A stretch of 64,000 nucleotides of DNA from a virus (taxonomy: Duplodnaviria; Heunggongvirae; Uroviricota; Caudoviricetes). The notes below the pieces were generated by a model. That model was not told where the DNA came from. It ran no database searches and saw nothing but the letters and a program-made list of their open reading frames with translations. Positions 42,078 to 60,723 of this stretch are shown here, in pieces; position 1 is the stretch's first letter; every line of letters starts with the position of its first letter. The position numbers were made by a program, and so were the translations under genes. Location of the stretch: IMG/VR virus record IMGVR_UViG_3300033070_001123. One strand, given 5' to 3'.

Positions 42078-44870
42078 TCAATATGTCGTAGCCGCTTTCC
42101 TATACCATCCTTTAGAAGCATTCTTTTGCGGAAAATCCATTCCTGGATCTTGATTATCAACGTCTTCGACAACAGGAAAGTTGAAAGGAGTATTTCTCTT
42201 ATTACACATCTCGACAATCTCAGGGTCTTGAGCCGCAATGATATCAAGTTCGCTACAGTTTATGTAGTTTATCTTATCTCCTGGCATCGCCGTCCGCATA
42301 AGCCTCTTAACAACCTCTATATACTTTTGTTGAATGACAGGATTTTCTTTTAGAAACTCAGGTAATTTAGTAAACTCTTTAGCCAAAGCGTTCTGAAAGT
42401 TCATATTTGTTGAATAAACTCTTGATTGTATATACGCTTCAACAACCTGAGGATTCTCTTGAACTTGAGGAGGAAGAGTTAGATAAACAGAAGCTCTCCA
42501 TTTCATTGTTTTAAGAACCTGCTCAATACCTTGATCAAAGTTGCCAACCGCTGCTTGATAATCCTTATCTTGCAATAGTTTCTCGTCAACCTTGTCTTTA
42601 CCAACAAGCTTTTTCTTAAGAGGGTCATTTGCAAGAACCTGCTCTTTATACAATCTGTAAAGTTCAGGATCTTCTTTATAGCGAGGATCAAAACTTGGGA
42701 AGTTGTGTATATTCTTGATAAGAACTTTTCTCTTTGTAAGATTTACAAAGTTTTGGAATCCAGGCGTTTTTCTAGCCCAAAGAGGGGCTATTGCTGAAAA
42801 CTCAGAGTCCATATAAGAATCAAGAAGAACTGAAGTCTCTGTTTGTCGAGAATGAGGCTCTAAGTGAGCTTTACTTATCTTGTCAGCATACTTTTCAGCC
42901 ATTTCCTCAACATTAGCAGGATCTGCAAAAATTCTATCAATAACAGGTCTTGGAGTATCAATAGCTATATAGCCTTCTCTAACCGCAGCTTCAGCGCTTT
43001 GATTCTTAGCAACATTGATAGCTTGCTCAAAATCCCTGTCCGCATGAAGTTCTGGCAACAAATCTCCAATTACTTGTTGAAGAGCGTCATATTCAATCTT
43101 GGCGGTGGCAATTCTACCCTTTTGTTCTTTGGTTTTTCTGCTCGCGCTGAAAACATTTGCCTTCCAATAAAGACCTTCTTGATACTTTCTAAGAACAGCG
43201 TGCTTAAAGACTTCTTTACCTCTTGGGTAGTCTCTCCAGTGATTAGGAACCTTCTCAAGAACATTTCTAATACGGTCAGGGCTGTTTTCATAAAGAACCG
43301 TAAGTCTTCCATGAACATTTTCCATGAAAGCAGGATCTCTAAGAACAAACTCTGGCATGTTCTGAGCATTGGCGGCAACGTTCTCGGCCATCTGAAGAGC
43401 GTCGTTTCCTCCAAGATTTTGAACCTTCTTGAACCAACCTTCTTTACACGCAGTTTGAAGTCCCTCTAAAAGCTGAGGATACTGAGCAAACTTGTCGTTT
43501 TCTGTAACCCTGTTATAAAGAGCAGGATTGGTAAGAAGCATTTTTCTAAACTCTTCAATCTCTTCAAGATTTGGCGTACCGTCTTCATTGAAGAAGCTCT
43601 TATTGAGGTTTGCTTCCTTGAGGATTTGGTCCCAGTGGGTCTTTGCGTAAGAAGTAATCCTTGGTTCAAGGCCTTCTCTATAGATAATATCTGTAATCTC
43701 TCGCCAATAAGCTGTTGGGCAAGAACGACTTACGCCACCTGCGTAGCTTTGGTCTCCTGCGATTTCAACAATATCTTCGCCGCTAAAGCGAATACCAACA
43801 TTGGCTTTACCATTTTCAACTAATATCCAGAAATCGCCAGCGCTAAGATATCTTGGACCATTACTATTCTTGGTTGTACACCAAGCATTAGGAACAGAGA
43901 AGTTGTGGAGTATTTCAACGTTGTTTTGAAATACTTTTTCAGCGTCTATTGGCTTGCCGTCTTTGTCAATGCCTTCTTTTGTCTTATCTTTACTTGGAAG
44001 CTTGAGCCAACCAGTCTTATCAGCTTCATTATATCCTTGCTTAGCGACGGCAAGACTATGCTCAACAAGACTCTTCTCATAGTCTTTGAATATATCAATG
44101 TTACGAGAGTTGTTTTGATTTATAGCGTCCTGAACTTGCTCTGGCGGAAGATTTACTTCCTGAGCAATCTGGTCAACAGGCTTACCTTCTTTGGCAAGGG
44201 CTAAAACCTTCTTGAAAACATTCTCGTCTTTGATTGGACCGTTATATTTGAACTTTACATTCTTGACTTTTTGAAAGATTTGAGCAATAACAGGCGGAGA
44301 GGCAGACGGAGCAGGATTGATAGTCTTTGGACCCGAACTATCAAAGATAGAGTTCAAAAGAAGGTAAACGAAAGCAGGGCTGCTTGAATAATCAGGATGG
44401 TCTTTGACGTAGGTTATCCAGCCGTCGAATGCTTGTTTCTTAATGTTGTTGATAACGTCTACATAGAACTTTTCAGCGCCTTCTTTATCATACTTAGCCA
44501 TGTTGTAGGCATGCTCAAGTTCAGGGTTGAAAATGTTGTTTTGTCTAGCAAAGTTATAACCTGCCTCAACATCAAACTTCTTTATATAGTTACTATTTGG
44601 GTTATTCTGGTCTACTTTTGCAAAGACCTTTGGTAGTAAAACAACCTTGATAAAGTCATTGATATCGTCTTGATTTTCAATCGACTTTTGGATTTGAGCG
44701 GCTTCTCCAGCCTCGTTTTTGCTTTCGACAGTATAGCCGTTCCACTTGATCATACCCTCATAGCGCATGATAAGAAGTTGAAGGGCGGGGTCTGTAACTC
44801 CGTACTTCTGTATCTTTTCTTTTGGTCCTGCGACCTTTATCATTGACCTGATTATTCTATACCAACTCAT
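42078..44870 (-). CDS. Large hypothetical protein (about 930 aa). N-terminus is MSWYRIIRS.
   Basis: Long ORF. I chose the start at the ATG at 44870, which gives the MSWY N-terminus shared with other proteins in this region. Confidence 0.5.
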   Translation of the reverse strand: MSWYRIIRSMIKVAGPKEKIQKYGVTDPALQLLIMRYEGMIKWNGYTVESKNEAGEAAQIQKSIENQDDINDFIKVVLLPKVFAKVDQNNPNSNYIKKFDVEAGYNFARQNNIFNPELEHAYNMAKYDKEGAEKFYVDVINNIKKQAFDGWITYVKDHPDYSSSPAFVYLLLNSIFDSSGPKTINPAPSASPPVIAQIFQKVKNVKFKYNGPIKDENVFKKVLALAKEGKPVDQIAQEVNLPPEQVQDAINQNNSRNIDIFKDYEKSLVEHSLAVAKQGYNEADKTGWLKLPSKDKTKEGIDKDGKPIDAEKVFQNNVEILHNFSVPNAWCTTKNSNGPRYLSAGDFWILVENGKANVGIRFSGEDIVEIAGDQSYAGGVSRSCPTAYWREITDIIYREGLEPRITSYAKTHWDQILKEANLNKSFFNEDGTPNLEEIEEFRKMLLTNPALYNRVTENDKFAQYPQLLEGLQTACKEGWFKKVQNLGGNDALQMAENVAANAQNMPEFVLRDPAFMENVHGRLTVLYENSPDRIRNVLEKVPNHWRDYPRGKEVFKHAVLRKYQEGLYWKANVFSASRKTKEQKGRIATAKIEYDALQQVIGDLLPELHADRDFEQAINVAKNQSAEAAVREGYIAIDTPRPVIDRIFADPANVEEMAEKYADKISKAHLEPHSRQTETSVLLDSYMDSEFSAIAPLWARKTPGFQNFVNLTKRKVLIKNIHNFPSFDPRYKEDPELYRLYKEQVLANDPLKKKLVGKDKVDEKLLQDKDYQAAVGNFDQGIEQVLKTMKWRASVYLTLPPQVQENPQVVEAYIQSRVYSTNMNFQNALAKEFTKLPEFLKENPVIQQKYIEVVKRLMRTAMPGDKINYINCSELDIIAAQDPEIVEMCNKRNTPFNFPVVEDVDNQDPGMDFPQKNASKGWYRKAATTY

Positions 44871-44979
44871 TAGTTTTCCCAAAAGTTATAGTATCCCTGT
44901 CTATATTTCTGTAAAAATACCTTCTATCCTTCCTGAATTAGAGGACTCTCTACCTTTGAAATCGGCAAATTTTCGCGCA

Positions 44980-45019
44980 AAGAAAAACCGCCGGTCCAAC
45001 CCGAAGGTCAAACCGGCGG
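44980..45019 (-). terminator. Terminator hairpin: 8-bp stem ccgccggt/accggcgg with a 16-nt loop, followed on the minus strand by TTTTTCT.
   Basis: Read directly, downstream of the G+C-rich AAA gene. Confidence 0.45.
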
Positions 45020-45068
45020 CTGAGATAAGAAGAACGGATTATTCCGTCAACTTATGCGAGGTTGGTGA

Positions 45069-46685
45069 TTAGGACTTGACAACAGCGCCAATCGGAGGAG
45101 CCTTGACGCTGTTCAGGTTGAGGCCCATCTTCTTGACATCCTCAGCGCTCTTGAAGGGCTGACCAGTGCCGTCAGCGTTAGCGACCTGGAGGAACTTCAT
45201 GAGAGTCTCAGTAACGGCGAGGTCAGCAATCTGCTTGAGAACAGGAGGCAGGTTAGCGCCGCCCGTTGCAGCAATGCCGCGACCGATACCAGCGCCCAAG
45301 CAGGCGAGGCCGACTTCCATGACCGAAGGACCGTCGCCCGTCTTGGCCCCGTTGAGGAGGCGCATGTGAGGCTCCATGCCCTTCATGGCAATGATGAGGT
45401 CTTCGCTGGTGACCTGACCAGTGATATCGTTGGTGCGAGTGAGCGCCGAAATCTTGCTGCGCTCAACGCATTCGCGGATAGTCGCCGGAATCTGACCCGC
45501 CAAGAACTCGGCGGCAGGATTCAGGTCAGTACCGTCAGCGAGCAAGTCGCCGCCGTACTTCTGAATCAGACGCAGCGTTGCCTCGCGGTCGGGCGGCTCA
45601 ACAGGGATAACCGTGTCGATACGACCAGGACGGAGGAAGGCGCGGTTGATGTTCTCGGCGTGGTTGGTCGTCAAGATCGTGATGATCTCAGCGTCCTTGT
45701 AGTCAGCGCCGTCAATGGTGTTCAGCAACTCGTTCAACTGAGTGCTGCGAGGACCGTTAGTAGCAATGTCAACGTCCTCAGCAAAGATGACACAGGGCGA
45801 GTACAGCTTGGCGTACTTCAGAGCAATCGGCAGGTCTTCGACGTTCGAAACGTACATGAACGTCCAGCCGTTGTCTTCGCAAATCTTGGCCGTGGTGTAG
45901 GCGGTCAAGGTCTTGCCGCAGCCGTAAGGACCAGTGAGAAGAACGCCGCGCTTGAGGGGAATACCGAACTCGCGGAACGCGCCCGTCTTCTCAATCGCAG
46001 AGAACAGACCAGTCTGGATGAGGTCAGCAACTTCCTTGCCGAAAACAAGGTTGTCCTTACGAGCATTGGAAACGTCCAGGAAGGTCGGAGCGTCGTTCGT
46101 CGGGTGGAAATCGCGGCCTTCGCGCATCCAGGCGAACGAGACCTTGATGGCCTTGCCCTTGTAGATGCTCTTCTCGCGAAGGTTCTTCTCGGTACGAGCC
46201 GCAATGTTCTGTACCGACTTCTGGTACTTCTTGAGAATCGTACCGCCGATGATGAACTTCGGCTTGGTGTTGCCCTTGCCAGGAATGACGGTCGTAAGAA
46301 CGCTGTCCTTCAACTGAGGGAACGAAATGTTGCCCCAAGGAACCTGAGTCTTGGCGTTGTGACCAATCGGAACCGTCATCATGGTCGGAGGGGTCGGACC
46401 CCAGAAACCAGGAGTCGGAGTACCGATAGCAATACCGAACTCCTCAAGACAGGCGCGATTGAAGTTCACCAAGCCGTCGAGAGGGAAACACTCGATCTCA
46501 TGGTTGATAGACGTTTCGGCCTCTTCGTCAGCCTGAATGCCGAGAAGAGCGTCAATCGCCTCCTGAATCTCCATGTCGCGGGGGTCGCTGGGCAGAGTAA
46601 TCAACTTACCAGAACGCTCAACCTGAACGTCCTGAAAGGGATTCTCCTGAAGTTCCGTCTTCTTTGCTTTGGGAGTGATAGACAT
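45069..46685 (-). CDS. AAA+ ATPase (538 aa). A second copy of the same architecture as 16851..18194, but in a G+C-rich gene.
   Basis: Walker A GPYGCGKT, Walker B VIFAEDVDI, and second region of homology PGRIDTVI. About 57% G+C in a counted 60-nt sample, against about 38% elsewhere. The long antisense ORF 45366..46868 is the usual high-GC artefact. Confidence 0.75.
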   Translation of the reverse strand: MSITPKAKKTELQENPFQDVQVERSGKLITLPSDPRDMEIQEAIDALLGIQADEEAETSINHEIECFPLDGLVNFNRACLEEFGIAIGTPTPGFWGPTPPTMMTVPIGHNAKTQVPWGNISFPQLKDSVLTTVIPGKGNTKPKFIIGGTILKKYQKSVQNIAARTEKNLREKSIYKGKAIKVSFAWMREGRDFHPTNDAPTFLDVSNARKDNLVFGKEVADLIQTGLFSAIEKTGAFREFGIPLKRGVLLTGPYGCGKTLTAYTTAKICEDNGWTFMYVSNVEDLPIALKYAKLYSPCVIFAEDVDIATNGPRSTQLNELLNTIDGADYKDAEIITILTTNHAENINRAFLRPGRIDTVIPVEPPDREATLRLIQKYGGDLLADGTDLNPAAEFLAGQIPATIRECVERSKISALTRTNDITGQVTSEDLIIAMKGMEPHMRLLNGAKTGDGPSVMEVGLACLGAGIGRGIAATGGANLPPVLKQIADLAVTETLMKFLQVANADGTGQPFKSAEDVKKMGLNLNSVKAPPIGAVVKS

Positions 46686-46880
46686 ACGCTTCTTACCTCA
46701 TTTTTCTCCGCACAACGGCGGACTAGGAAACTGAAAGGGCCGATACCTTTCGACCCAACTGACAGAACAATAGCACCCCAAACAATGCGAAGAAAACTCT
46801 TGCATGTGGAAATACAGAGAATCTTTTCGCTTTTCGTGTCTTTGGAAGCATTCTCGCTTTTACTATAGGTGACGCTTGAG

Positions 46881-46919
46881 CCGCCAAAAGAGAACGCCCG
46901 ACCTTTTCAGGTACGGGCG
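46881..46919 (-). terminator. Candidate terminator: stem cgcccg/cgggcg with a 13-nt loop, followed on the minus strand by TTCTCTTTTGG.
   Basis: Read directly. It lies 116 nt downstream of the 1165-aa gene. Confidence 0.35.
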
Positions 46920-47034
46920 CTGAATATTTTCGCCGGTTTCTCTTTTCTCGCTTCTCCGATTACTCGGAAGGTGTAAAAAAACATCTCTGCCTTTTACAAG
47001 ACCGTACAGGTCTCGGTAGCCTGGATATAGAAAC

Positions 47035-50000
47035 TTACACGACTCTTCTGTGTCTCAAAGCTCTAAAGAAGGGGTAGCCGTCACTCGTCATGAGGCCCGG
47101 CTTAATTACTAAGCCAGGATTTTCTTCTTTCATCTTTTTCATCAAAAGAGTCCCAACACCCTGCCTTCGGTATTTTGGAACAACCTCAATCATGCTAATA
47201 TGCAACTCATTGTCAAATATGTTGTAGCTCAGTTGTCCAACAAGATCTTTCGTTTGCGTATCGTAGGCTCGTATTACCATGTCTGATTGCCCATGATGAT
47301 ACCCGATACACTCTGAATCCTCAACCTCTATGTTACTCTTGATAGGCTCTGCGTTTCTCTGGGTCTCGTCCGGCGAAAACTCGCTTGCTAGTTTACATAA
47401 ATCATACCAACCGCTTGCTCTTCGTTTCGTTTTTCCTTTGAGCGCTTCCTTCTTTTTACGAGCAATCCCCTCAAGAGTCCAAAGTATCGTCGGGTAGCGA
47501 GACCTTTCTTGTTTCTTGTTGAAGTATTTACTTATCCATCTTGGTATTCTGATTTGGGTTTGCATGAGAAGTTTTTCAACATCTTCTATAACAGCGTCGT
47601 CAAGACAGTATGGAAGATTTTCCGCTCTAGCAGAATCAGCGGCTTCGTCTTGAATCTGCTGCTTTTCGTCCTCCCAATCGCTAAGCGCTTTTTGATACTC
47701 TTCAGGATCTTCAAAATCATCTTCCTGAGGTTCGTCTGGAAACTCTAAATAAGAATCATCATAGTGGTCAAAGAATTTCTCGTTGTTTTCTTGCCTCTTG
47801 TTATATATTTGCGCAATCTGAAACTGAGCATCAAGAACCTGAGCCATAAACCTTCTTTGATTTTTCTCGTCAAGCTGATCAAAGCTTCTAAGCTTGCTGT
47901 AATCAAACTCTTTAGCTTGACTCATATTGTAATAAGCCTTTTCAATAGTTTTCTGTTCAACAGCTTGCGGGCTTGTATATCTTTCCCATCCTTGCCATTT
48001 ATCTTTGAGAGCTTGATCTGTCTCTCTTTGAACTGCCGCCGCTGCCTCTGGTATATAGTCTTTGAGATATATCTTTTTGTTCTCGGGCGACATTCTATCG
48101 AACTGTTCTTTCTTCATAACGCTATGCTTTGCAGACTTATGCGCCCAATTCAATGCCATTGCTTTCATTTCTTTTTCGTTAATAAGACCTTGATTGAGTT
48201 TTTGTATATCAGAATCAACAGCGGCTCTGGCTAATACCTTCGAGACATGATGCGTTTGATATCCGCCGTCATTACGGTATCCTCTATCATTGTTGAGCTT
48301 TTTGTAAACAGCTTCATATGCGTCTTGATATTCCCATTTTGTTAGAGATACTGGTAAGCCGTAGCCCTCTGCTCCCTTATATATGGCTCTTTCAAGATCG
48401 TCGTCCATGCTTCCATAGCTAAGATCGCTATAATCAAAGTCGTCCATACCCTCAATAGCAGCGCCTTTGAGAGTTCTCATCCACTCGCCAATCATTGCTT
48501 TTAGATTGTCGCTTGGGTCTACGTTTCCAGTCTTTGGACCGTTGCCATAAATTTGTCTAAAGGTCCAACTATTAGGGCTAACTTCCATTGTTACATAAGG
48601 TACATTAGAAGGATCTCGAAGCGAAAAGATCCTGGTATTACCTTTCATAACGTCATCGCAATAACTTCCGACGCAATTGTGAGCAACAAGATGTTGAACT
48701 ACATAAGAATGTATTCCTTCAACTTCTATGTTATAAACCTTACCTGTAAATTGTATTTTTTCATGGCAAATAGGTTTAACTAAAACTTCTTTTTTATGTA
48801 TCCAAAAGTTTGATTTTCTAGAATCTCTTTTTATGCTTGCGTCAGCACCCTCAAGAGTGTATGCTGTTTTTCTATTTCTTTTAGTATTATCTTTTTTTGA
48901 TAAAGAAGGAAACCCTCCCAATCTAAGAGAGATCTCAGTCATTTGAAGAGCAAGCTCTTTGGATGTTTGATGTAAAACATTTCTGCCTTTGCATCCATCT
49001 CCATCAAATATTCCTTGCCAAATATAAATAACTTTTTCATTAGGCAAATTAAGGAATTGCGAAGGTATTTTTTTGTTAGAACATCCACATCCAAACATTT
49101 CACTGAACCATCTGCACAGCATTCTGCTGTTTACTAAAACAACTATTCCCCCAAATTCTTCCGAATCTTTTCTTATGCGCGGCGAAAAGCCATTTTTTGA
49201 GAAAAAATCAAAAATTCTATTAACATATTCTGTTTCTGTTTTTGAAAGAGCAAAACTCAGTTTGTCTCCGTCATTTGAGCCTTCCGCTATGTATATCCCA
49301 AAAATCCATAATAAATCTTTATCTACATTATATATCTTATTGCCTTTAGATTCGTTTATAATACAATGATCTGGAATTTTTATTTCATTTATATCTTCAA
49401 ATTCTTTTGGAACTCTTGATAAAATATACGAATCTTTTAGCGATTCTATAGGTTGCCACTCAATAATGTGTTTTTCCTCAGGTTTATTATTTCTACATAA
49501 AGATCCACACGTATGAAGTCTACAAGGCTTATTTCCTTTGTGATTCGATTTCAGAGATAAAAATAAATGTTCGGGAGTAACATATATAGGATCTGTACCT
49601 AATTTAGTTTGTAATTTAATAATTTCACCAACATAATCTCTTTCGAATTTTTCTGTTACTTTTTGAAATGTTCCATTTTCAACAAGAACTAAATCTCCTA
49701 TTTCTATTTCTTCTATAGGAATAAACCCTTGTTTAGTTCTTATTAAAGAACCAGCAGCAAAACAATGACCCATCTTACCGCCTTCGGTTCTTAGATTGTT
49801 CTTTGTTACAACTTGCTTGATTGTCCAACCGGCCCAATCAGGTCTACTCCATTGAGGACCAAATACAACGTCTTCTCTTTTTTCGCCGTAATACTCAAGA
49901 CCTTCGCCTTCTCCAGAAATAACATCATGCCAGTTTTCAGCAAACTGATCTGCTTGGTCAAGAGTTAGTCCGGCAAGGTTGGTGTTTGCATTTGTAACGC

Positions 50001-50532: not shown

Positions 50533-50565
50533 ATTCTAAAATTCGTACTTTTACAATCAAAACCT

Positions 50566-52683
50566 TCAAAACTCTCTTATTACAATATCGTTTCCAAAAG
50601 TCTGATGAATATTGTTCTTGCAAACTTCTTTCATTCTTTTACAATACATTTCTTTTGCAGCGTTCATAGGAGCAAGGTTTCGATTAAAACAAGCATCGCA
50701 AGCGGTTAGGCTCGCCATTCTCTTGCAAGTATCAACCCTTCCTTTGTAAATATAATCGTCTGATAAATCGCCTTCGATTTTCCATGTACCATGATTGTTT
50801 ACTAAGTCTGTTTCTTTTGTATGCCTAAAAGATCCGTTTCTATAAAAGAACCAAAGATAGTTACAACCATACTCGCCTTTTTCAAAACCAGAATGACCAA
50901 TGCTTAAATAATTGTCGTCCAAGTCATAAACTTGTTCGCCTTGAGCTTTTTTGTACCAGTTTGTGCCAGAAGCATTCTTGGCTCCAGATATTCCAAAGTT
51001 CTTTTCATAATAGGTTGGAATTGCTTTGTCTTTGTTATTTAGAATGTAAGGTTCCATTTCTGGCCATCTTGCTTTCATAATGGTTACAGCATATTGACCA
51101 GCAGCCCATTCATTTTTGAGTTCCATGATTCTTTGTTCAAGCTCTGGCCATCTTTGTCTTACTAAGTCTCTTGCGTAATAAAGGGCCTCAGATAGCCCTC
51201 CCCATTTGTCATTAAGGAGTTTTGGCTCAATTTCTGGCCATCTTCCTTTGATAACTTCTTTTGCGTATTGGTACATATCCCATATCTTGTTGCTTTGTAT
51301 AATAGCTCTTTCAAGTTCAACCCATCTAAAATTGCAATTCTTGGCATAATCTATGGCATATTCAAAATCATAACTCTCTTGACCAACCTTGATTAAATAG
51401 TCTTCAAATCGCTTTTCTGCTCTTCTATTACCATTTAGATGCCAAAGATAACTAACAACTTCTTCTGCGCGAAGAGGATTGCTAAGCATCGCAGCTTCAT
51501 ACTCTGGCCAAGTAGAATAATCACCATTTCCAGGCTTACCCTCTCCAAAGTTGTAGCTTGAATATCTGTCTTTCCAATAATTATGAGCATATGTTGAGTT
51601 TATAATTTGAGCTTCATGTCTTTCTTCTGTCCAACGAAGGCCTCCAGAAAGGACCGCTTCCATATACTCTTCTATGCGAGAACCATTGATAACACCATAG
51701 TTCTTAAGCATCTTTTTATCAGATAAGATTGGTTTGAATATAACATTTTCTTCAACAGCTTTGAGTCTTCCAAAATCTCTTGCATACTCAAGTATGTCAT
51801 TAAAGAGATAAGACGGAAACTCTCCGTCGTTTTCTTGTAGTTCTTTTTCAAAGTAGTTTGCGAAATCAACGTCAGCGCCGTCATAAAATACGTTCTTAGC
51901 ATAGTTACCAAAGAAGTCTTCATCTTTGATATGACCAAGCTGAATAAGCTTTTTGAGAACCTCAATAAAAGATTGCGGAGGCTGATCTATGGATTTATCA
52001 AGAATATCCATTACTTGATCTAGGTCTTTTGTCGCTTGAGCATATTTCTGCCACTTGCCGCCTTCGTTATGCAAAAACAAAAATAAAGGCCCACCCTTCA
52101 AGTACATTTGCGCATTTTCAAGACCGTCATTATCAGCATTAGTACACCACTTTGTTCCTTTGCCAAGCTCGCAAACAGCCTCAGGCGTTGTCATTTCAAT
52201 AACGCGCCACTCATCGTCTCTATAAACCTCTCTGCTGCCTTGCATCTTTACATTCTTGGCAACCTGTCTTTTGCTTTCTTCATTAACACCAGTAACTTTG
52301 CTAACAGCCTCTTCAAGGTCTCCAAGAGAAGGATACTGTTGTATATTCTTTAGCTGAAACTTGTTATTTTGTTGCGTAAAGACAGATAAAGCTCTTGTTA
52401 GTCTGCCCAAATCTTCAGGGAGCCTTATTACGCCACGATTTAGCCATGCATATACAGGAAACAAGAAGCGATTTGGTATCTTGCCTTGAACTTCATGCAA
52501 AAATCCCTTATATCTGTTGAGATGAAACTCAAGCCTTGAAGCTCCTTTTTCATTTGTAAGCTTTGATAACTCAACAGCCGTTCCTCGGTCCCAGTTGTTC
52601 AATGACATTAAATAGGCTTGAGCGCCTTGACTAAAGCCTAAGGCTTGAAGATTAAGATCTGCTATACGAAGAAACCAACTCAC
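50566..52683 (-). CDS. Hypothetical protein (about 705 aa) with four tandem ~40-aa repeats of the form Y-A-x-x-V-I-K-G-R-W-P-E-x-E-P. Probable N-terminus MSWFLRIADL.
   Basis: Repeats: KGRWPEIEPKLL, RQRWPELEQRIM, KARWPEMEPYIL. The ORF-track start at 52731 is a TTG that overlaps the helicase gene by 52 nt. A GTG at 52683 gives a GTGA overlap with the helicase stop and an MSWF N-terminus. Confidence 0.45.
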   Translation of the reverse strand: MSWFLRIADLNLQALGFSQGAQAYLMSLNNWDRGTAVELSKLTNEKGASRLEFHLNRYKGFLHEVQGKIPNRFLFPVYAWLNRGVIRLPEDLGRLTRALSVFTQQNNKFQLKNIQQYPSLGDLEEAVSKVTGVNEESKRQVAKNVKMQGSREVYRDDEWRVIEMTTPEAVCELGKGTKWCTNADNDGLENAQMYLKGGPLFLFLHNEGGKWQKYAQATKDLDQVMDILDKSIDQPPQSFIEVLKKLIQLGHIKDEDFFGNYAKNVFYDGADVDFANYFEKELQENDGEFPSYLFNDILEYARDFGRLKAVEENVIFKPILSDKKMLKNYGVINGSRIEEYMEAVLSGGLRWTEERHEAQIINSTYAHNYWKDRYSSYNFGEGKPGNGDYSTWPEYEAAMLSNPLRAEEVVSYLWHLNGNRRAEKRFEDYLIKVGQESYDFEYAIDYAKNCNFRWVELERAIIQSNKIWDMYQYAKEVIKGRWPEIEPKLLNDKWGGLSEALYYARDLVRQRWPELEQRIMELKNEWAAGQYAVTIMKARWPEMEPYILNNKDKAIPTYYEKNFGISGAKNASGTNWYKKAQGEQVYDLDDNYLSIGHSGFEKGEYGCNYLWFFYRNGSFRHTKETDLVNNHGTWKIEGDLSDDYIYKGRVDTCKRMASLTACDACFNRNLAPMNAAKEMYCKRMKEVCKNNIHQTFGNDIVIREF

Positions 52684-54995
52684 CTTTTCTTTTTCCTTTT
52701 CTTCTTGGTACTCTTTGCCTTGACATACCAACCAACCTTGGAAGAAGCCTCTCTTCTTTCTTTCTTTTCTTCCTTGCTTGGAGCAAGAACATGCAAGCCC
52801 TTCATCGCTCTTGTATATGCGACATACTTAGCATTCTCTTCTTGTAAAAGCTCTTCTGGCGTTTTGGCTTTAGGATGAGGAAAGAGATTCGGTTCAAGAA
52901 TAAAGACTCTATCAAACTCCAAACCCTTAGATCTATGAGCAGAAGTAAGAGTTACATAGGATAGAGGGTCTTTCTTCTTCAAAGCCTCTGCTTCTTCCGC
53001 ATTATCCATATTGACACCAGCAAACTTCTTCTTGATATAATCAATAAAGCCCGTGCTGTCGTCAACTCTCATATTCAACTGAGGGTCTCTATAGCCAGAA
53101 GCCGCTAAATACTCAATAACATTACTCAAGGCTTCGGTTGTTGCCTTCATATCCTTGAGTTCTGACTCTCTTGCAATCTTGCCCTTCCAAGCTGTTTCTC
53201 TTTCGCTAAGGAAGTTGTTGATCGTTTCGCCAAGAACTCGTATAGGAACCTTCTTCGCCATTCTGCCCTTGCCCGTTATCTTTTCGATATGGTCAACAAG
53301 CTCTTTTGAGAAGTCTCTACCAATGATGACAAACTCAACATTGTTCTTCATAAGCTCAAGAGCAGTCTTTACAAGAGGAGAGTTCGTTCTCGCAATAAAC
53401 GCTGTTTGTTCCGCAAGCCTATTTCTTTGCCTCTTCTCGTTGAAGATATCGCCCATAGCTTCTTCAACCTTGCGGCCTTCGGTTACTTGACCGTCAAAGT
53501 CCCTACCAGCCTGAAGATTCTTAACATGGGTCTTTTCATTGACGTACTTGATAATGGCTCTTCCGCTTCTGTAGTTAACAGGAAGTTCATGAGGAACATT
53601 ACCGTTCGGAGCCTGACCAAGAACGCCTTGAACCTTCTGGAAAGCTTGAGCGTCAGCGCCTCTAAACATATAGATAGCTTGATTTGGGTCGCCTACCGCA
53701 ATAACCCTCGCGCCTGCCTGAGATAACTTCTGCAACATAATCGTTTGACAAGTATTGAAGTCTTGAACTTCGTCAGCCAAAACAACGTCAAAATGAGGCC
53801 ACTTTACGTCGTTGATCGCAGAATACCATAACGTATCGTCATGGTCTCTCATAGAGTTAAGCTCTGGCGTTGGCGCATTTCCGGGCAAGCAATAATGCAA
53901 CAAGTCAAGAGCCTTGTCTATAATCTGAGGCGCATAGTTGACGCCCGCTGCGTTTGGTTGCTTATCCTTATTAGGAGATAAGTCTGTATCAATATTGTAC
54001 TGACGGATAATCTCTGTCATTTGCTGAGCAGCATTTTGCGACTGAGGATGAACCGCAAACGCCTTACTCAAAGAAGCAAGTTGCTTGATTGTTTGCTTTG
54101 CAACGTATTTTACAGATTGAGGGAACGTGTTGTCTCTTTCCATCATGTGGTCAAGAATCTGAGTAATACGCTCGCCAAAGTTGTTCCATAAATCTGTATG
54201 CTGAATCATGTTAAGTTCAGAGCTTCGACCTAGAACTTGTCCAAGGAAGCTGTGGCTTGTCTTAACTTCAACACCGTTCGGGAACTTACCCTTGCCCGTA
54301 GAAGCTTCAACTTGGTTCTTTTTGTTGAAAACCAAGTATAGCCACTTTTCGCCAGGCGGCTTAAAGCTTGCCAAGTGACGAAGCATGGTCGTCTTACCAG
54401 ACCCGGCAAGAGCGTTGATCATAATGCTCTGAGGCGTATTAAGGAATGAGTTCTCAATATCTTTTTGTTGAGGACTGATTCTGTTGGCTGGAATTCGGCC
54501 AGGAGCTTCGGGTTGTTGCTGTTCAGCTTCTTGAGCTTTAGGATTGAGTTGATGATACTTGTTAAAAAGAACCGCAGGATTTGTGCCTGAAACCTTTTGA
54601 CCGTTTTCTTCAACTGACTTAATAGTTTTCGCAACTTCAGCGTTTGGGATTGTTCCAAAGTCGCCATTTTCTGTTTGATAGTCCCATCCCGTCGCTCCCT
54701 TAGCGGCAACAACAGGCTCGCCAGTTGCAATCATCGTTGCAAGAATCCATGTTCTTTGCTTTTCAGGCTGCGGCATAGCAGCCTGCGGCGGACGAGGTTG
54801 GGGAGCTTGAGGTTGTCTGTTCTGAGGAGCGGCAGGAGCTTCATTAAGCTTCCTTACTCCTTTGCATTGCGGATATTTGCTGCATCCAAAAAACTCGCCA
54901 TACGGTCCCTTCCTCTTCGTCATCGGAGAACCGCATAACGGGCATGGGCCGTTCGCTTTCTTCTTCATATTGCTCGCTTTCTTTAACCAATCCAT
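52680..54995 (-). CDS. UvrD/PcrA/Rep-like SF1 helicase with an N-terminal topoisomerase-type zinc ribbon.
   Basis: Zinc ribbon CPLCGS...GCSKYPQC. Walker A ALAGSGKTT, motif II VLADEVQDFN, motif III AVGDPNQAIYMFRGAD, and motifs V-VI TSAHRSKGLEFDRVFIL and YVAYTRA. Lys-rich C-terminal tail. Confidence 0.8.
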   Translation of the reverse strand: MDWLKKASNMKKKANGPCPLCGSPMTKRKGPYGEFFGCSKYPQCKGVRKLNEAPAAPQNRQPQAPQPRPPQAAMPQPEKQRTWILATMIATGEPVVAAKGATGWDYQTENGDFGTIPNAEVAKTIKSVEENGQKVSGTNPAVLFNKYHQLNPKAQEAEQQQPEAPGRIPANRISPQQKDIENSFLNTPQSIMINALAGSGKTTMLRHLASFKPPGEKWLYLVFNKKNQVEASTGKGKFPNGVEVKTSHSFLGQVLGRSSELNMIQHTDLWNNFGERITQILDHMMERDNTFPQSVKYVAKQTIKQLASLSKAFAVHPQSQNAAQQMTEIIRQYNIDTDLSPNKDKQPNAAGVNYAPQIIDKALDLLHYCLPGNAPTPELNSMRDHDDTLWYSAINDVKWPHFDVVLADEVQDFNTCQTIMLQKLSQAGARVIAVGDPNQAIYMFRGADAQAFQKVQGVLGQAPNGNVPHELPVNYRSGRAIIKYVNEKTHVKNLQAGRDFDGQVTEGRKVEEAMGDIFNEKRQRNRLAEQTAFIARTNSPLVKTALELMKNNVEFVIIGRDFSKELVDHIEKITGKGRMAKKVPIRVLGETINNFLSERETAWKGKIARESELKDMKATTEALSNVIEYLAASGYRDPQLNMRVDDSTGFIDYIKKKFAGVNMDNAEEAEALKKKDPLSYVTLTSAHRSKGLEFDRVFILEPNLFPHPKAKTPEELLQEENAKYVAYTRAMKGLHVLAPSKEEKKERREASSKVGWYVKAKSTKKKRKKKR

Positions 54996-55071
54996 CCGCT
55001 AAACCCCTTCTCGTCGAACGCCGCCATGCTCGCACGAAAAAATTTCCCAGAGGTATAATTGCTTAACTTTT

Positions 55072-55551
55072 TCACACTTTCCCTCTAAACCTACCGTCGT
55101 TCCTCATCCATGCCGGTATATAAGCCTTTGGATTCCTCTCCAACTCCCTAAGCTTCTCCGCCGCCATACGCTCTTGCTCCGCTGTCCATCCCCCAACCTG
55201 CTGACCAACCTCTAACCCATGCCTTATGTCCGCTGGCTTTCCTATCGAAGCGTCCATGCTGTCAAACTTCTCAACGCCCTTGCAGTATCTCATTGGAATG
55301 TCGCCAACCGTCGTTACTACCGTACCAACCCGACCTTCTATTAAATTTCGCGGAAGTACAAAAGAAAGGATTACTGTTTCGTCGCCCTCAAAGAACTGCT
55401 TCCCAAACGCCTTCGCTAACTCTTTGCTCGTTGTAAGGTTCGGTACGTCCGATTTCCTCAAAACGCCAGTCCTATTCATTAAAAGATAGTTCTCACGGCT
55501 GGTGCCATGATACAAAGTTACAAAGGTCTCGTTAGCGGCTTTATACCACAT
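55072..55551 (-). CDS. Hypothetical protein (159 aa). N-terminus MWYKAANE, followed by LYHGTS.
   Basis: I chose the ATG at 55551. The ORF-track start is a TTG. Confidence 0.45.
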   Translation of the reverse strand: MWYKAANETFVTLYHGTSRENYLLMNRTGVLRKSDVPNLTTSKELAKAFGKQFFEGDETVILSFVLPRNLIEGRVGTVVTTVGDIPMRYCKGVEKFDSMDASIGKPADIRHGLEVGQQVGGWTAEQERMAAEKLRELERNPKAYIPAWMRNDGRFRGKV

Positions 55552-55633
55552 GATACTATAGTATCGAAATATAAACAGCCTTTCCTTTCTCAACAATCAA
55601 GGATTAGAGCATACTTTCTCGATACATAGTGGT

Positions 55634-56746
55634 ATGAACTGGTACTCTAGAGCAAAGTTTGCAACAACGCCTATATGGAACGTCCAATATAACAGAGACT
55701 CCATATCAAGCATGCTCTATGCCCTCTATGAACTTACTTATAAGTACCAATACTTACAACACCATAACTTCAACGGCTACCCAAAGAGACTTGAAAATAT
55801 CCTCAAACAAATAGAAAACTCCGCAAGAACCGTTATCGCAGACTTTGTGGATATACTCGTTCCAGTCTTTGAAAACTGGCTTTCGGGTCACGCCCTCCTT
55901 ACCCCTCGAACTTGGGCAACCAAAAGAGCTAAAGAATGGTTTGAAATAAACGGAGATTCCCCGCAATCCCTCGCCGAAATGATCGAGAGCGAATGCGATA
56001 TGCAAAGACTAAGAAAGAAGTTTAACATTTCTCCAGAGCTACACCGACTCGACGAACCTGTTAAGAACGGCCAAGCTCCTGTTCTTCATAAACTCTTTGA
56101 AACCGCAAAGTATGAGCTTATTGAAGCTGATACCGAAAACGCTTTTTACGAAGCTAATAGAAACCAAGAAGAAATAGACGAGGAACAAATACAAGCTGAA
56201 ATCAAACAACGCTACGAAGAAATGCCGTTCTCCGAATATCTTAGCACCTGGCACGGCGACGATTTGGCAGGATTCCTTGAGGCCGCTTCCCAAATGTATG
56301 ACCTTGAGGAAATATGTATAGAGTTTGCTCAGTTCTTATGCTTCCCTATTTGGTACGGCTTCTGGAAGCCCCAAGGTATAGACCAAACAAGACAAAGAAT
56401 AGAGAATGCCTATAGCATGCTCAAGAGCGTTGAGAACCAACCTATCGGTCAAGCCCTCGCTACAATCAATATTGTTATCAACTCCGCTCACCAAACCGGA
56501 GACATGCTCGATTATATAGCTGACGTTACCCAAGACTCAAAGGGCGAGATTCGTCGAGCAATGGACCTTCTTAGTAATGCTACCGAGTTTGAGGAATGGG
56601 ACTTAGACCTTCGAGAGGTTGGGTTACAGTTGCCGCCAAAGACTCCTCCAACGGCTCCGCTCAAACCAATAACACAAAAACCCAACCAAGTTGGGCTTCC
56701 TCCTGTTGCGCGAAATCTATTGTTCGAGCCGCCTAAAGAGGTCTGA
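55634..56746 (+). CDS. Hypothetical protein (370 aa), N-terminus MNWYSRAKFA. One of the few plus-strand genes.
   Basis: ORF. ATG verified at 55634. Confidence 0.5.
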   Translation: MNWYSRAKFATTPIWNVQYNRDSISSMLYALYELTYKYQYLQHHNFNGYPKRLENILKQIENSARTVIADFVDILVPVFENWLSGHALLTPRTWATKRAKEWFEINGDSPQSLAEMIESECDMQRLRKKFNISPELHRLDEPVKNGQAPVLHKLFETAKYELIEADTENAFYEANRNQEEIDEEQIQAEIKQRYEEMPFSEYLSTWHGDDLAGFLEAASQMYDLEEICIEFAQFLCFPIWYGFWKPQGIDQTRQRIENAYSMLKSVENQPIGQALATINIVINSAHQTGDMLDYIADVTQDSKGEIRRAMDLLSNATEFEEWDLDLREVGLQLPPKTPPTAPLKPITQKPNQVGLPPVARNLLFEPPKEV

Positions 56747-57041
56747 CGCTTTCAAGTCTTGCCTTGCTTACCCTTACCTCGCCGCCATTCGCAGAATCGC
56801 CTCCTGATATTATATCAGCTTCTTCATACGAATAGGTGAGCAAAAGCTCTTGCCCGTCCGTCATATTACTGTAATAGTCTATAACGAACTGTTCTGTCGT
56901 TCCTAAGAAAGTATCGCCAACGACGCTGCCAATGGTAAGGTTGTATTGGAGGTTGCGGTTGGCTAGAGAATAAGCCTTGCCGTTGGCAAAGCCAACGACC
57001 TTAAACCCTGTTCTTCTATTTTGCGCGAATTTATACCACAT
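56733..57041 (-). CDS. Hypothetical protein (about 102 aa), N-terminus MWYKFAQN.
   Basis: I chose the ATG at 57041. The ORF-track start at 57065 is a TTG. The sequence ttataccacat at this start is identical to that at the 55551 start. Confidence 0.4.
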   Translation of the reverse strand: MWYKFAQNRRTGFKVVGFANGKAYSLANRNLQYNLTIGSVVGDTFLGTTEQFVIDYYSNMTDGQELLLTYSYEEADIISGGDSANGGEVRVSKARLESVRPL

Positions 57042-57924
57042 TGCGATTCTTGTACTCTCTGCCAAGCCATCTCAAAGCTGCGGGTAACTGTTTAGGCCAT
57101 ACATACCTATATAGCTCGCTCTTCATAACTTGTACACTCTTATTACCAAAACCTCTTATCAAAGCTTTCTTCGCTTCGTCAAAGGTCCATCTTCCGCCAT
57201 ACCTATCAACAAAGCTCTGTACAAACTTGTTAGGGTCAAACTCCTCGTCTACCCTAAACACTCTTCTTGCTGCCAAGGTTGATTCATGATTGCTGTTGCC
57301 CTTGAACTCGTAACCCTTGTTGTTCGCTAAGAACTGTTGTCTTGATACATTGGATAACTGACCGTTACGGTTGTCTCTTAGCCATACTCTGATAATACGG
57401 TTTGGATTCAAGTGTCCAACGAATAAAGCTTGGCTCTCGCCAAATCCTAAAAGAGTATTTGCAAGCTCTGGTCTTTCGCTCTGAGAGATGGGCGGAATGT
57501 TGCGGTCTACCGCTCGTTGCCTTGCTCGAACTCTTTCTTCTTCTCTTTTTGCTTTGCTGTTGCCAAAGTATTCAGCCATCTGCCCTTGAACGGTATAAGA
57601 ACCGCCTGGCCAAACGGGAGCCTCAAGCTCGTTCATGTTCGCATGAAACTCAACTATCCAAGCTCCAAACTCCGAAGCTTTCTTTGGGTCTGTTGTTACA
57701 AATAACCCTGTAGGATTGTTGTCGGCTTCATATGAGTAAACCCTACCAACTCTTGACTTTCCAGATAAGCCGTAGCGACATGCGGCTATGGCGTCCTCTA
57801 AATCCCTAAAACCATGAAAGACCCTTACTACGTCGTTCTTCTGTAGCGCCGGTCTTTCTTCGGGACTCCTGCCGGGAGGCAAGGTGAGCCTGTCTGCAAA
57901 CTTAGCAAGGTCGTACCAACTCAT
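57031..57924 (-). CDS. Hypothetical protein (297 aa), N-terminus MSWYDLAKFA. Has a VFHGFRD segment.
   Basis: ATG verified at 57924. ATGA overlap with the downstream gene. Confidence 0.5.
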   Translation of the reverse strand: MSWYDLAKFADRLTLPPGRSPEERPALQKNDVVRVFHGFRDLEDAIAACRYGLSGKSRVGRVYSYEADNNPTGLFVTTDPKKASEFGAWIVEFHANMNELEAPVWPGGSYTVQGQMAEYFGNSKAKREEERVRARQRAVDRNIPPISQSERPELANTLLGFGESQALFVGHLNPNRIIRVWLRDNRNGQLSNVSRQQFLANNKGYEFKGNSNHESTLAARRVFRVDEEFDPNKFVQSFVDRYGGRWTFDEAKKALIRGFGNKSVQVMKSELYRYVWPKQLPAALRWLGREYKNRNVV

Positions 57925-58547
57925 GAGGACCGTCCTTCCCTCATAATCTTTTGAACGAAGTTCATGACTTGAGAGTTTGGAGGCATGCTCTTGAGCTTAT
58001 TGTACTCTTCGTGAGAGCCGATCCAATACCATATAAACTGAGATTGAAACTTAACAGCTAATGCTCTGTAACGACCGCCAACCTGAGCAGACCAAACTTC
58101 TAGCTTTCCCCTATTTTCGGGTAATGGCTTAATGCCAACTTGTTGAGGATTGGAAAGAAGCGTTTGATATTTTTGAGAGGCTAGCTGTTGAACTTGAACT
58201 GGCAATAAGGATAGCGAGTCTCTGAAGCTTTTGGTTTGCCAATGCCCAGTATCAAAGCCTGCAAATTTTACCAAACCATGTTCATGAGAGTTTGATTCTA
58301 GGTTTTTCTTAAAAGCGTCTGGATCTTCTTCAAGTGTATTAAGGTCTTTGGTTAGACTCTTTCCAGGTATTCCTGTTGGTTTGCATTTTAGACAGTATAT
58401 AGGAATGCGATCTTTTCTTGCTTTTTCTATATCAGATTCTTTTGCTCTCATTACATCGCCACAATGGTCGCAACGATAACGAAAAAATCTACTACCAGGG
58501 ATAGGTAGTAGATTCATTTTATAGTTTTCAGAAACTATGATTTTCAT
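57921..58547 (-). CDS. Hypothetical protein (208 aa) with a Cys4 zinc ribbon (CDHCGD...CLKC).
   Basis: ORF with 4-nt overlaps at both ends. Confidence 0.45.
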   Translation of the reverse strand: MKIIVSENYKMNLLPIPGSRFFRYRCDHCGDVMRAKESDIEKARKDRIPIYCLKCKPTGIPGKSLTKDLNTLEEDPDAFKKNLESNSHEHGLVKFAGFDTGHWQTKSFRDSLSLLPVQVQQLASQKYQTLLSNPQQVGIKPLPENRGKLEVWSAQVGGRYRALAVKFQSQFIWYWIGSHEEYNKLKSMPPNSQVMNFVQKIMREGRSS

Positions 58548-59141
58548 GCCGCTTCCTGTTGCCCGTCATAAAACATTTCAACAATACGCTTTACATTATG
58601 AACTTCTATACCTAATAGTTTTGATATTTGAGAAGACGATAGGTTTGGATTTTTGTTTTTGAAACCTATAATCTTATCAACTATTTTCTTGAAGTTAGAG
58701 TCTTTTCTAGATAAGAACTTTTCTCTTATTTCTGCTCGCTCATTTGGATTGAGAGCTTTCATAAGATATGGAAGAAGGGTTTGATTAGCTACATTAAAAT
58801 GAGCAGCAATTTGATTGATGGTATAGCCCTTTCTGTAAAGATCAGCAGCTTTCTTTCCTTTATTTTCGTCTAGGGCGGGGCCGTTATACGCATTATTTCC
58901 AGGACCAAACCGTTCTGGTTGAAACCCTTTTCTTTTGGATAAAAAGTTTCTTAGAATATTGGGACCGATATTCATTTGTCTTGATATTTGCTGAAGAGAT
59001 ACGCCTTTTTGATAGAGATACGCCTTTTTGATATAGATCCCAAGCTTGATCAACAATTGATTTATCATTTTGCAATTCGTCGGTTCTGAGACCAGTCCAT
59101 TGACCGTCCGCAAACTTTGCCATTTCATACCAGTTAGACAT
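58544..59141 (-). pseudogene. Gene for a protein with three helix-turn-helix-like repeats (N-terminus MSNWYEMAKFA), split into two frames (58893..59153 and 58544..59128) by a 19-bp tandem duplication.
   Basis: Perfect direct repeat gagatacgcctttttgata at 58996-59014 and 59015-59033. 19 nt is not a multiple of three. Both ORFs contain LYQKGVSL, one encoded by each copy. The ATG at 59141 is verified, with a GGAGG site 6 nt upstream. Confidence 0.55.
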
Positions 59142-59562
59142 TGTTACCTCCAAGCGGCTCTTGATTCGTTAGCCAAGTAATGTTATTGTCTTTTGGAGGA
59201 AGTATACCCCTGTGTCCGACTTGACCTTTCTGAGCTAACAAAGCTTGTAAGCTCTTCTTGTCATGATTGCTACCGCCAGGACGAGGAGGATAACCTGCGT
59301 CAATCCACATGTTAACAGTTGTTTGATCCGTATCGTATGGGCTTATATCAGGATAAAGCGTTTTGCCTTCAGGAGTTATAACGGTATGATAAGCTTTAGC
59401 AACCTCTGGAACGCCTCTATGGTCTCTTTCAACGTCAATATCAATCTTGCAGGTATGGCCTTTATAGTTCCATTCCTGATCATGCATTGCTTTCTTATAA
59501 GATTTTGTTTGTATATTCTTCATTGTTCGTTTTCCTCTCTTCTCATAGATACTATCGAACAA
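59134..59562 (-). CDS. Hypothetical protein (142 aa).
   Basis: ORF only. Confidence 0.45.
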   Translation of the reverse strand: MFDSIYEKRGKRTMKNIQTKSYKKAMHDQEWNYKGHTCKIDIDVERDHRGVPEVAKAYHTVITPEGKTLYPDISPYDTDQTTVNMWIDAGYPPRPGGSNHDKKSLQALLAQKGQVGHRGILPPKDNNITWLTNQEPLGGNNV

Positions 59563-60255: not shown

Positions 60256-60429
60256 GTCTTCCACTGCGCCATTATTAAATAGCAAACCCCAACCAACATG
60301 GCTGGGGGTTGCTGAGACAATCAAATCTGTGTGAGTCTTTGGTGGTGGGAGTTTAGTTCTTCATGGCTCGCTCCTTTGTTAAGACCCTTCGTTCCGTTGT
60401 CTGACTCTGTTGTTCTTTGCGACCGAAGT

Positions 60430-60723
60430 TTAGTTACGGTCGATGGTCGTCTTCATGGGGCCTTGCCCTTTGAGGCTGAGGTAGCGGAGGGCCGCTGCGT
60501 CCTCTCCCGCCTCTCGGACGATTCGAGCGGCCTTGCGGCAAGCCTCTCTGCTGCCCTTGGCGACGAGGGCCTTGCCGTTGTTGTGGACCTTGAGGGCGAC
60601 GGCCTTGGCGTCGTCGTAGGAGAGTTCGGGGTTGATGCGCTGAACGAGGGAGATGACGAATTCGAGGCTGTGGGTCTTGCTGTTCTTGAGGAAGGTTCGG
60701 AATGGCTTGCGAGCGGTTTTCAT
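60430..60723 (-). CDS. Small hypothetical protein (97 aa) in the G+C-rich array.
   Basis: I chose the ATG at 60723, which has an AGGAAG/AAAGGA ribosome-binding site. The TAA stop lies inside a GAAGTTTAGTT motif copy. The longer ORF-track version 60430..60912 runs across a motif copy. Confidence 0.4.
   Translation of the reverse strand: MKTARKPFRTFLKNSKTHSLEFVISLVQRINPELSYDDAKAVALKVHNNGKALVAKGSREACRKAARIVREAGEDAAALRYLSLKGQGPMKTTIDRN

Follow-up and report, generated by a model that had tools for sequence, protein, structure and literature searches.

The 64,000-nucleotide stretch of viral DNA analysed here (IMG/VR record IMGVR_UViG_3300033070_001123, from a virus of the class Caudoviricetes; hereafter the window, meaning the whole stretch) encodes a set of otherwise unrelated proteins that share a short peptide tag with the core W-[YF]-[KR]-[KR/L/I]-A-[QK], exemplified by MNWYKKAQ, MSWYDLAKFA and KNASKGWYRKAATTY. 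A first-pass annotation of the window had described this peptide as an N-terminal signal for targeting, processing or packaging. Our main new finding is that the tag is not confined to N-termini, where the core is preceded by M-[NS], and is found at domain junctions and at C-termini as well, usually behind [KR]-x-A-S (with two further residues, [KR]-x-A-S-x-x). As far as the searchable literature goes, the tag is real, widespread and undescribed: the peptide strings are absent from PubMed Central (PMC) and bioRxiv full text, and nothing relevant turned up in searchable text, either on these strings or on N-terminal motifs common to several huge-phage proteins, in line with the annotation, whose author was aware of no description of an M-S-W-Y signal. 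The idea of targeting is thus a reasonable one and is partly supported, in that a selected peptide is indeed common to unrelated proteins, and its strictly N-terminal framing proved too narrow. A genuine, selected peptide on unrelated proteins is most naturally read as a common recognition signal, and we lean, with slightly better than even confidence, towards a short linear docking peptide that would gather unrelated proteins at one receptor, with loading into the virion as the favoured purpose.

The copies away from the N-terminus are located on the large proteins of the window (Table 1) and are conserved in their families. All full-length members of the family of the 930-amino-acid (aa) protein have both an N-terminal M-x-W-Y and a C-terminal [KR]-x-A-S-x-G-W-Y-x-K, 5-8 residues from the stop; across 13 sequences (33-97% identity) W922 never varies and conservation of Y923 is 90% or higher, and the M-x-W-Y start is present in 12 of the 12 database homologues with an intact N-terminus. 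In the 1165-aa protein, the internal copy has the context KRRASG-WYDLCKLA, and an orthologue of 709 aa (contig L004) terminates right behind RTRASG-WYARINK. The junction of the 705-aa protein (GAKNASGT-NWYKKAQ) leads into a C-terminal module of ~125 aa that is elsewhere a stand-alone tagged gene; W576, Y577 and K578 are invariant in seven sequences of this family, W-Y-K/R is retained in database homologues down to 30% identity, and at least four modules are found behind it (an 'IGH' domain, ART-PolyVal, a HExxH module and short tails). The UvrD-type helicase ends in ASSKVG-WYVKAK and a basic tail, and on contig L128 an additional HExxH module of 180 aa comes after the helicase junction KQASKKG-WYKKSQ. 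The same module stands behind the tag on a member of the 705-aa family (L035) and is a stand-alone tagged gene in L002; neither it nor the 'IGH' module has a significant match in Pfam. The SNF2 helicase, finally, ends in RQAST-WYDRTILAGSV. A regular expression for the junction, A[SFV].{0,3}W[YF].[KR], gave 8 matches against 0.7 in shuffled sequences. Apart from its tags, the 1165-aa protein contains an intein of ~362 aa (residues 257-619, window ~48678..49762, minus strand; Hint_2, LAGLIDADG_3 and intein-splicing matches), which interrupts it just upstream of the PcfJ-like segment; the intein-free orthologue in the relative L003 is 802 aa long.

At N-termini, M-x(0-2)-W-[YF] starts are present on eight genes at 42-59 kb, with the UvrD helicase as a ninth (a decayed MDWL) and the gene at 27358 as a tenth, so that all ten N-termini of the first-pass annotation are borne out by the DNA. 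Several of them required a change of start codon, and the independent gene calls on the source contig likewise use the tagged starts for the 1165-, 705- (through GTG), 159-, 370-, 102- and 297-aa genes. Orthologues agree: homologues of the 705-aa protein start M-x-W-F/Y, those of the 370-aa protein MNWFRLAKFG, MRWFELAKYG or MNWYQILKFA, and the orthologue of the helix-turn-helix (HTH) protein in L017 starts MSTWYELSKKADGQW. Two members were less straightforward. The helicase carries a decayed copy, and a public gene call begins at M10; however, its orthologues start with intact tags (MNWYKKAHQMKKKANGPCPQC, MSWYKMTK, MNWFKEIM, (TTG)NWYRRLK and MTWYKKKF, or in short form MNWYKKAHQMKKKANG or MSWYK), and the upstream start is therefore supported. 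The 203-aa protein at 27358 does have the annotated N-terminus, but WYEK and the residues that follow are kept in its orthologues, which start MSSWYEKCMPKIKD and MKTKSWYKKSMPQ, and judging from these sequences its MKWYEKAI may be partly intrinsic to the family. The HTH gene, which had been taken as one open frame (58544..59141), turned out to be disrupted by a 19-bp tandem duplication. Deletion of one 19-bp copy gives an uninterrupted HTH protein of 192 aa that starts MSNWYEMAKFA, and the duplication may be genuine, and have turned the gene into a pseudogene, or may have arisen in assembly, the only other copy examined being the source contig.

The enrichment of the motif is unlikely to be due to chance. 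Six-frame open reading frames (ORFs) of at least 80 aa were scored for M-x(0-2)-W-[YF] at any start within the first 60 codons, with thirteen control loci from seven unrelated UvrD phages and five untagged huge phages (six loci). Motif-bearing ORFs numbered 11 of 126 in the window and 8 of 32 at 42-59.2 kb, against 10 of 1080 in the controls (Fisher p = 1.5e-6). The description of the proteins as unrelated also holds at the level of BLAST after the first 14 residues are trimmed, the sole match being a 33-aa HTH similarity between the 930-aa and the HTH protein. A further tag-like string, W-Y-x-R-A-K, was seen at residues 7-12 of the protein encoded at 24987..25820 (plus strand), which by reading has a T4-lysozyme-like motif and starts MQQENGWYIRAK before a hydrophobic segment.

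Table 1. Copies of the peptide tag in the window, and the duplication that breaks one tagged gene
Feature	Position	Strand	Location and context
MSWYRIIR	44847..44870	-	N-terminus, 930-aa protein (gene 42078..44870)
MNWYYGQI	50509..50532	-	N-terminus, 1165-aa protein (intein, PcfJ-like, GNAT; gene 47035..50532)
(GTG)SWFLRIA	52660..52683	-	N-terminus, 705-aa protein (gene 50566..52683); gene caller uses GTG
MDWLKKAS, decayed tag	54972..54995	-	N-terminus, UvrD-type helicase (gene 52680..54995)
MWYKAANE	55528..55551	-	N-terminus, 159-aa protein; YHGT motif as in tagged ART-PolyVal proteins
MNWYSRAKFA	55634..55663	+	N-terminus, 370-aa protein (faint Cdc6-lid match)
MWYKFAQN	57018..57041	-	N-terminus, 102-aa protein
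MSWYDLAKFA	57895..57924	-	N-terminus, 297-aa protein
MSNWYEMAKFA	59109..59141	-	N-terminus, HTH protein; frame broken downstream
MKWYEKAI, tag-like	27358..27381	+	N-terminus, 203-aa nucleotidyltransferase-like protein
ASKGWYRKAA	42090..42119	-	C-terminus, 930-aa protein; 3 residues before stop
ASGWYDLCKLA	47386..47418	-	Internal, 1165-aa protein, residues 1039-1049; precedes GNAT domain (1073-1137)
NWYKKAQ	50941..50961	-	Internal, 705-aa protein, residues 575-581; junction to C-terminal ~125-aa module
ASSKVGWYVKAK	52713..52748	-	C-terminus, UvrD helicase; then basic tail
ASTWYDR	38962..38982	-	C-terminus, SNF2 helicase (gene 38938..42057); outside the region of the first-pass annotation
19-bp tandem duplication (TATCAAAAAGGCGTATCTC x2)	58996..59033	-	Frameshift in HTH gene 58544..59141 after residue 43

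Conservation of the tag lies at the level of the protein. A sequence logo of 90 non-redundant tagged ORFs reads M, N (61) or S (14), W (90), Y (80) or F (10), K (57) or R (9), K (44), R (11), L or I, A (58), and Q (32) or K (18), and conservation ends at W+5. Both Asn and both Tyr codons occur, Arg at the basic positions is encoded by CGC or CGT besides AGA, and the offset from the Met differs between tags (MWY, MNWY, MSNWY and MKTKSWY); selection therefore acts on the peptide. The identical stretches of DNA that had been pointed out at several starts do exist (ATGTGGTATAA at 55551 and 57041, ATGAGTTGGTA at 44870 and 57924), and result from the codons used. An RNA-level start element was rejected, as amino acids rather than nucleotides are conserved: in tagged genes TGGTAY occurs solely in frame, at +3, +6 or +9, the DNA preceding untagged genes shows no excess of it, and the upstream DNA of tagged genes is not conserved. 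The codons of the tag are biased towards A (AAA 86-91% against 62% in gene bodies, GCA 64% against 26%), which is the usual start-proximal effect. In the 82-bp divergent intergenic region at 55552..55633, an inverted pair of TCGATAC(A/T)TAGT ends 4-6 nt before the ATGs at 55551 and 55634 and might serve leaderless transcripts as a -10-like element; as a promoter or leaderless-mRNA explanation it was discarded, the element not being repeated elsewhere in the window (5 matches against 7.7 expected).

Comparison with homologues shows the tag to be an add-on. The alignment of isolate homologues with a tagged ART-like protein begins only at residue 6-12, remote homologues in the 705-aa family start in an ordinary way without a tag, and the Walker A strand of tagged P-loop kinases starts ~10 residues after the Met. 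The same picture is given by AlphaFold2 models of the 930- and 705-aa proteins (from alignments of 13 and 17 sequences, respectively), in which the bodies are confident (mean predicted local distance difference test score (pLDDT) of 81.7 and 76.8) and the tagged segments lie outside the confident body with a pLDDT below 50. In the 930-aa model, residues 1-12 (pLDDT <50) contain a short helix at 3-10, and a helix at 921-929 is carried on a disordered tether (895-930, pLDDT <50); in the 705-aa model short helices are formed by residues 4-7 and 576-582, the latter within a low-pLDDT linker. A single short helix on a flexible tether, as predicted here, is what short linear docking motifs usually look like. 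As to the body itself, a fold search with the 930-aa model gave nothing significant (best matches HEAT/karyopherin-like solenoids, E = 5e-3, template modelling score 0.08), and neither a PDB sequence search with this protein nor NCBIfam searches with the 930-, 705-, 370-, 297-, 159- and 102-aa proteins returned a match.

The tag is characteristic of a subset of huge phages, most of them uncultivated. A scan of IMG/VR with a DNA pattern encoding MNWYKKA gave 28 stretches, nearly all at ORF starts, against ~3 expected by chance (an estimate from base composition), and many of them are located in tandem arrays of 4-6 small unrelated genes, each starting MNWYKKA, MNWYKR or MSWYKK. Tag-bearing contigs range from 5.7 kb to 548 kb in length and from 24 to 44% in GC content. 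In bacterial and archaeal genomes (596 Gb), the same pattern gave 78 stretches against ~17 expected (our own estimate); these are mostly internal, some with a 216-nt spacing or continuing as WYKKAAEQ, which gives them a Sel1-repeat-like appearance, and the sole array is on a 19-kb contig binned with a Halanaerobium metagenome-assembled genome. An 85-kb Logan contig (SRR32380203_2322) has its final 17.2 kb in common with window positions 45634-62829, without a single difference, and most of 41.6-61.3 kb aligns to the end of a 333,623-bp IMG/VR viral contig (L003) at 89-96% nucleotide identity. Tagged starts are found on orthologous genes of relatives whose helicases range from 66% down to 37% identity to that of the window. 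No matching phage isolate was found by megablast of the tagged region, and searches for a cultured tag-bearing phage gave a best match of 27% identity with the helicase (tblastn) and no match with the 930-aa family. Relative to window 59592..60138, L003 has a 4.7-kb insertion with two further tagged paralogues (2437..4270), which start MWYIIAQN and MWYILAQN.

Among the 90 tagged proteins, Pfam identifies AAA_33 kinases (5), UvrD helicases (4), ART-PolyVal proteins (4), 2H phosphoesterase/Acb1 proteins (3), GNAT proteins (3), several HTH proteins and one cREC_REC protein. Untagged neighbour genes encode Ro60/TROVE, Tpt1, RNA ligase, ADP-ribosylglycohydrolase, NAD synthase, NUDIX proteins and peptidases. 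Some tagged genes are found next to head genes: on L020 a six-gene tag array adjoins the gene for a head protein and that for an 1842-aa protein with a head-maturation-protease-like N-terminus, and on L032 and L025 a tagged gene follows the head gene on the same strand. In the 1842-aa protein (L020 6177..11702, minus strand; also L025), the similarity to head-maturation proteases (and to phage G around gp19) covers the first ~250 residues, and the very long helical extension behind them suggests that it may be a protease-scaffold fusion.

These carriers recall the polyvalent proteins of phages and conjugative elements described by Iyer, Burroughs, Anand, de Souza and Aravind (2017; PMC5512222), which contain two to fifteen domains per polypeptide; for those of phages, packaging and injection were predicted. 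Both sets share ART-PolyVal, GNAT, 2H phosphoesterase, zincin-like peptidase and SF1/SF2 helicase domains as well as carrier-plus-effector fusions, whereas the tagged effectors are mostly separate single-domain genes with one common short tag (PMC5512222). The text of that study contains neither 'N-terminal motif' nor 'N-terminal peptide' nor 'tryptophan' (PMC5512222). In Tunturiibacter phage Tunturi_5, gp321, encoded in the virion module between the head-tail connector and the tail genes, is a textbook example of such a protein, a 1362-aa fusion of SprT-like, 2H, ART-PolyVal and GNAT domains; in the tag-bearing phages 2H, ART-PolyVal and GNAT are separate genes, each with a tag. In gp321 (L123 397..4485), F-x-x-W-F-G-N-S-K-V-V precedes both ART-type domains (residues 747 and 1066), and the W-F-G-x-S-K of this lead-in resembles the N-W-Y-K-K-A that precedes YHGT in tagged ART-like proteins; on this likeness in sequence, the lead-in may be a hint to the origin of the tag.

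In the clade concerned, whose huge phages are uncultivated and in several cases have a capsid protein of the phage G type, the tag is attached to otherwise unrelated proteins that belong to the early or counter-defence class. It is found on the N-terminus of stand-alone enzymes and at the seam between swappable effector modules and large carriers (the proteins of 705, 930 and 1165 aa and both helicases, UvrD and SNF2). In the mechanism that we favour, the tag would bind a partner, one common receptor recruiting all tagged proteins. More speculatively, this receptor would be situated inside the assembling capsid or the ejection apparatus, and the tagged set would be loaded and delivered together, which would make the tag system a functional analogue of the capsid-targeting sequence (CTS) of phage T4 and a non-covalent version of a polyvalent protein. 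Loading into the virion is favoured because the arrays resemble the genes for T-even internal proteins, because the cargo matches that of polyvalent proteins and because some arrays are near head genes.

The analogy with capsid targeting had already been drawn in the first-pass annotation, and tandem arrays whose genes share only their first eight residues fit it, as do the kinds of proteins that are tagged. The genes for T-even internal proteins cluster in hypervariable arrays, an organisation that the arrays of small tagged genes resemble. T-even internal proteins are diverse, have only the CTS in common and include many counter-defence factors (PMC3012670). In IPI, IPII, IPIII and Alt this CTS is, like the tag, an N-terminal peptide of ~10 residues and the sole shared part of diverse, fast-evolving proteins (PMC3012670). 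In contrast to the CTS, the tag has no prohead-protease site, and is found at junctions and C-termini and on very large proteins including helicases; its consensus M-N-W-Y-K-K-A-Q also bears no resemblance, by eye, to the T4 CTS, to whose family the tag does not belong.

Several observations weigh against loading into the virion. No receptor was identified in this analysis, and the packaging step is our own extrapolation. The tag is unlike the T4 CTS in sequence, and no protease cleavage motif follows it. In the window, the neighbours of the tagged genes are genes for helicases and AAA+ proteins, not head genes, and tags on a helicase of 771-1313 aa and on other large proteins imply a heavy cargo load. 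One tag should suffice in a fusion, and the strictly kept junction copies hint at another role, perhaps in addition to docking, for example as a processing site or linker element. Lastly, the untagged major head protein phrog_2522 recurs in seven tag-bearing contigs and has its best isolate match in gp27 of Bacillus phage G (54.7% identity), but no tags are present in phage G (1-100 kb) or Tunturi_5 (41 kb around the head gene) despite the shared head-protein family, and the tag is therefore not simply coupled to that capsid. Tags are likewise absent from the head region of LR745208 and from 41 kb each of two uncultured huge phages with the 538-aa AAA family.

A bolder form of the docking model, which we put forward only tentatively, is a universal eight-residue 'address code' of this clade of huge phages that one receptor would read at the N-terminus, the C-terminus or a domain junction, so that an entire swappable arsenal, effectors and large carriers alike, would be delivered together to the virion for co-injection or to a phage-made compartment. 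If true, and we think it rather less probable than not, the code would be a phage protein-sorting signal of a kind undescribed outside the T-even CTS, and its cassette grammar would explain how polyvalent proteins are constructed. Should the tag be a sorting or loading signal of any kind, hundreds of hypothetical huge-phage proteins could be annotated as one delivered or co-localised set, and the tag would lead to the receptor and provide a handle of just eight residues with which foreign proteins could be brought into the capsids or compartments of large phages. The modular grammar of carrier, [KR]-x-A-S-x-G-W-Y-K-K and effector links stand-alone effectors to polyvalent fusions, and makes the origin of the latter testable.

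Other destinations or roles of the tag have to be considered. Recruitment to an intracellular replication or transcription hub, such as a clamp-like or single-strand-binding (SSB)-like protein, a phage compartment or the phage DNA, would agree with the composition of the window, in which UvrD, SNF2, the 370-aa protein (its faint Cdc6-lid match being to an AAA+ lid) and HTH proteins form a contiguous tagged module and the tag is missing from structural proteins, ribonucleotide reductase and the AAA proteins of the unfoldase type. Hub-binding motifs are, moreover, typically independent of position and carried on flexible tethers, clamp-binding or PCNA-interacting peptide (PIP) motifs being found at N-terminal, C-terminal and internal sites. 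However, the tag matches neither QL[SD]LF nor the PIP consensus, many tagged proteins (P-loop kinases, 2H phosphoesterases, GNAT and ART proteins) are not replisome components and no hub candidate was found, and we consider a hub unlikely.

It is also conceivable, at rather long odds, that the tag is a degron or a signal for translocation, recognized by host Clp or Lon or by phage Cdc48-like ATPases as the AAA+ unfoldase or protease, possibly through a ClpS-like adaptor, and serves to time toxic effectors or to thread proteins through a pore. Terminal tags that are predicted to be unstructured would suit such enzymes, and the window encodes two Cdc48/VCP-like AAA proteins, one of them (45069..46685) within the tagged module, as well as a divergent ClpS-like ORF (60430..60912). 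The pocket of ClpS binds W, Y, F or L. Bacterial N-degrons and ClpS substrates have a destabilising L, F, W or Y as their very first residue, with a free amino group. The tag as encoded was nonetheless rejected as such a substrate, W being at position 2-4 after the Met and never residue 1, and internal and C-terminal copies being conserved; those at junctions are hard to reconcile with degrons in general. In addition, the ClpS-like ORF is far under family cut-offs, by reading has N-S-K in place of the N-D-D of Escherichia coli ClpS and is restricted to near-identical genomes, whereas the tag is widespread, and the 538-aa AAA family is also frequent among untagged phages.

The junction copies raise the further question of whether the ~20 nt of tag-coding DNA act as recombination homology between cassettes, with the peptide merely tolerated, or whether A-S-x-G / W-Y is a processing site cut by a phage peptidase. 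Orthologous carriers do have differing C-terminal modules behind the same junction, carriers without a module still end in the tag, and the HExxH module is among the swapped cassettes. Yet the peptide is conserved over contigs of 24-44% GC through synonymous and conservative non-synonymous codon changes, which points to selection on the protein, and 'empty' C-terminal tags are conserved to 33% identity; N-terminal tags offer a protease no upstream residues, and the HExxH module lacks a significant Pfam match, so that we give this explanation very little credence. An effect on translation, with initiation or early elongation enhanced by the opening codons or by the nascent peptide as in artificial N-terminal expression tags, would suit the A-rich codon bias and the usual Asn at position 2, but leaves the invariant Trp, the variable Met offset and the untagged neighbours in the same operons unexpected, and is excluded as a sole explanation, since initiation cannot be influenced by the conserved copies inside proteins and at C-termini, and hardly deserves belief in any form.

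For the docking peptide that we favour, parallels are provided by clamp-binding/PIP, p97/Cdc48 cofactor and encapsulin cargo-loading motifs, which are likewise short, helical (for the tag, as predicted), carried on a disordered tether, independent of position and found on diverse clients; the tag consensus matches none of them. Helix A of Sel1-like repeats (W-Y-x-K-A-A-x-Q-G) is a nearly identical string, but the tag is a single helix, not one of the tandem helix-turn-helix repeats of 36-44 aa that define Sel1-like proteins, and no Sel1 family is among the listed Pfam matches of tagged proteins, and the resemblance is probably convergent. A Sec or Tat signal peptide, which has a hydrophobic core of at least 10 residues (and for Tat a twin arginine), was rejected, the tag being eight residues long and basic, with a folded domain directly after it.

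Besides the genes discussed above, which include the SNF2 and UvrD helicases and the two Cdc48/VCP-like AAA proteins, the window encodes a ribonucleotide reductase, an SPFH protein and a DUF3383 protein of 3421 aa. The latter is a single ORF (3357..13622, minus strand) in which DUF3383 (residues 1239-1334) is the sole Pfam match, and its in-frame internal MWYANLPS is probably due to chance. Towards the end of the window (60100..64000), GC content rises to 53-54%, compared with ~40% elsewhere, with a strong AT skew and short minus-strand ORFs, the divergent ClpS-like one among them; the source contig stops at position 62829, and the window runs on. In the relative L128, a lone untagged gene (486..1043, minus strand) within a fully tagged module encodes a protein with a prepilin-type N-methylation motif and a DUF1559 match below the Pfam cut-off. 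The DUF1559 family is expanded in Planctomycetota, and the gene may thus be a clue to the host of this relative.

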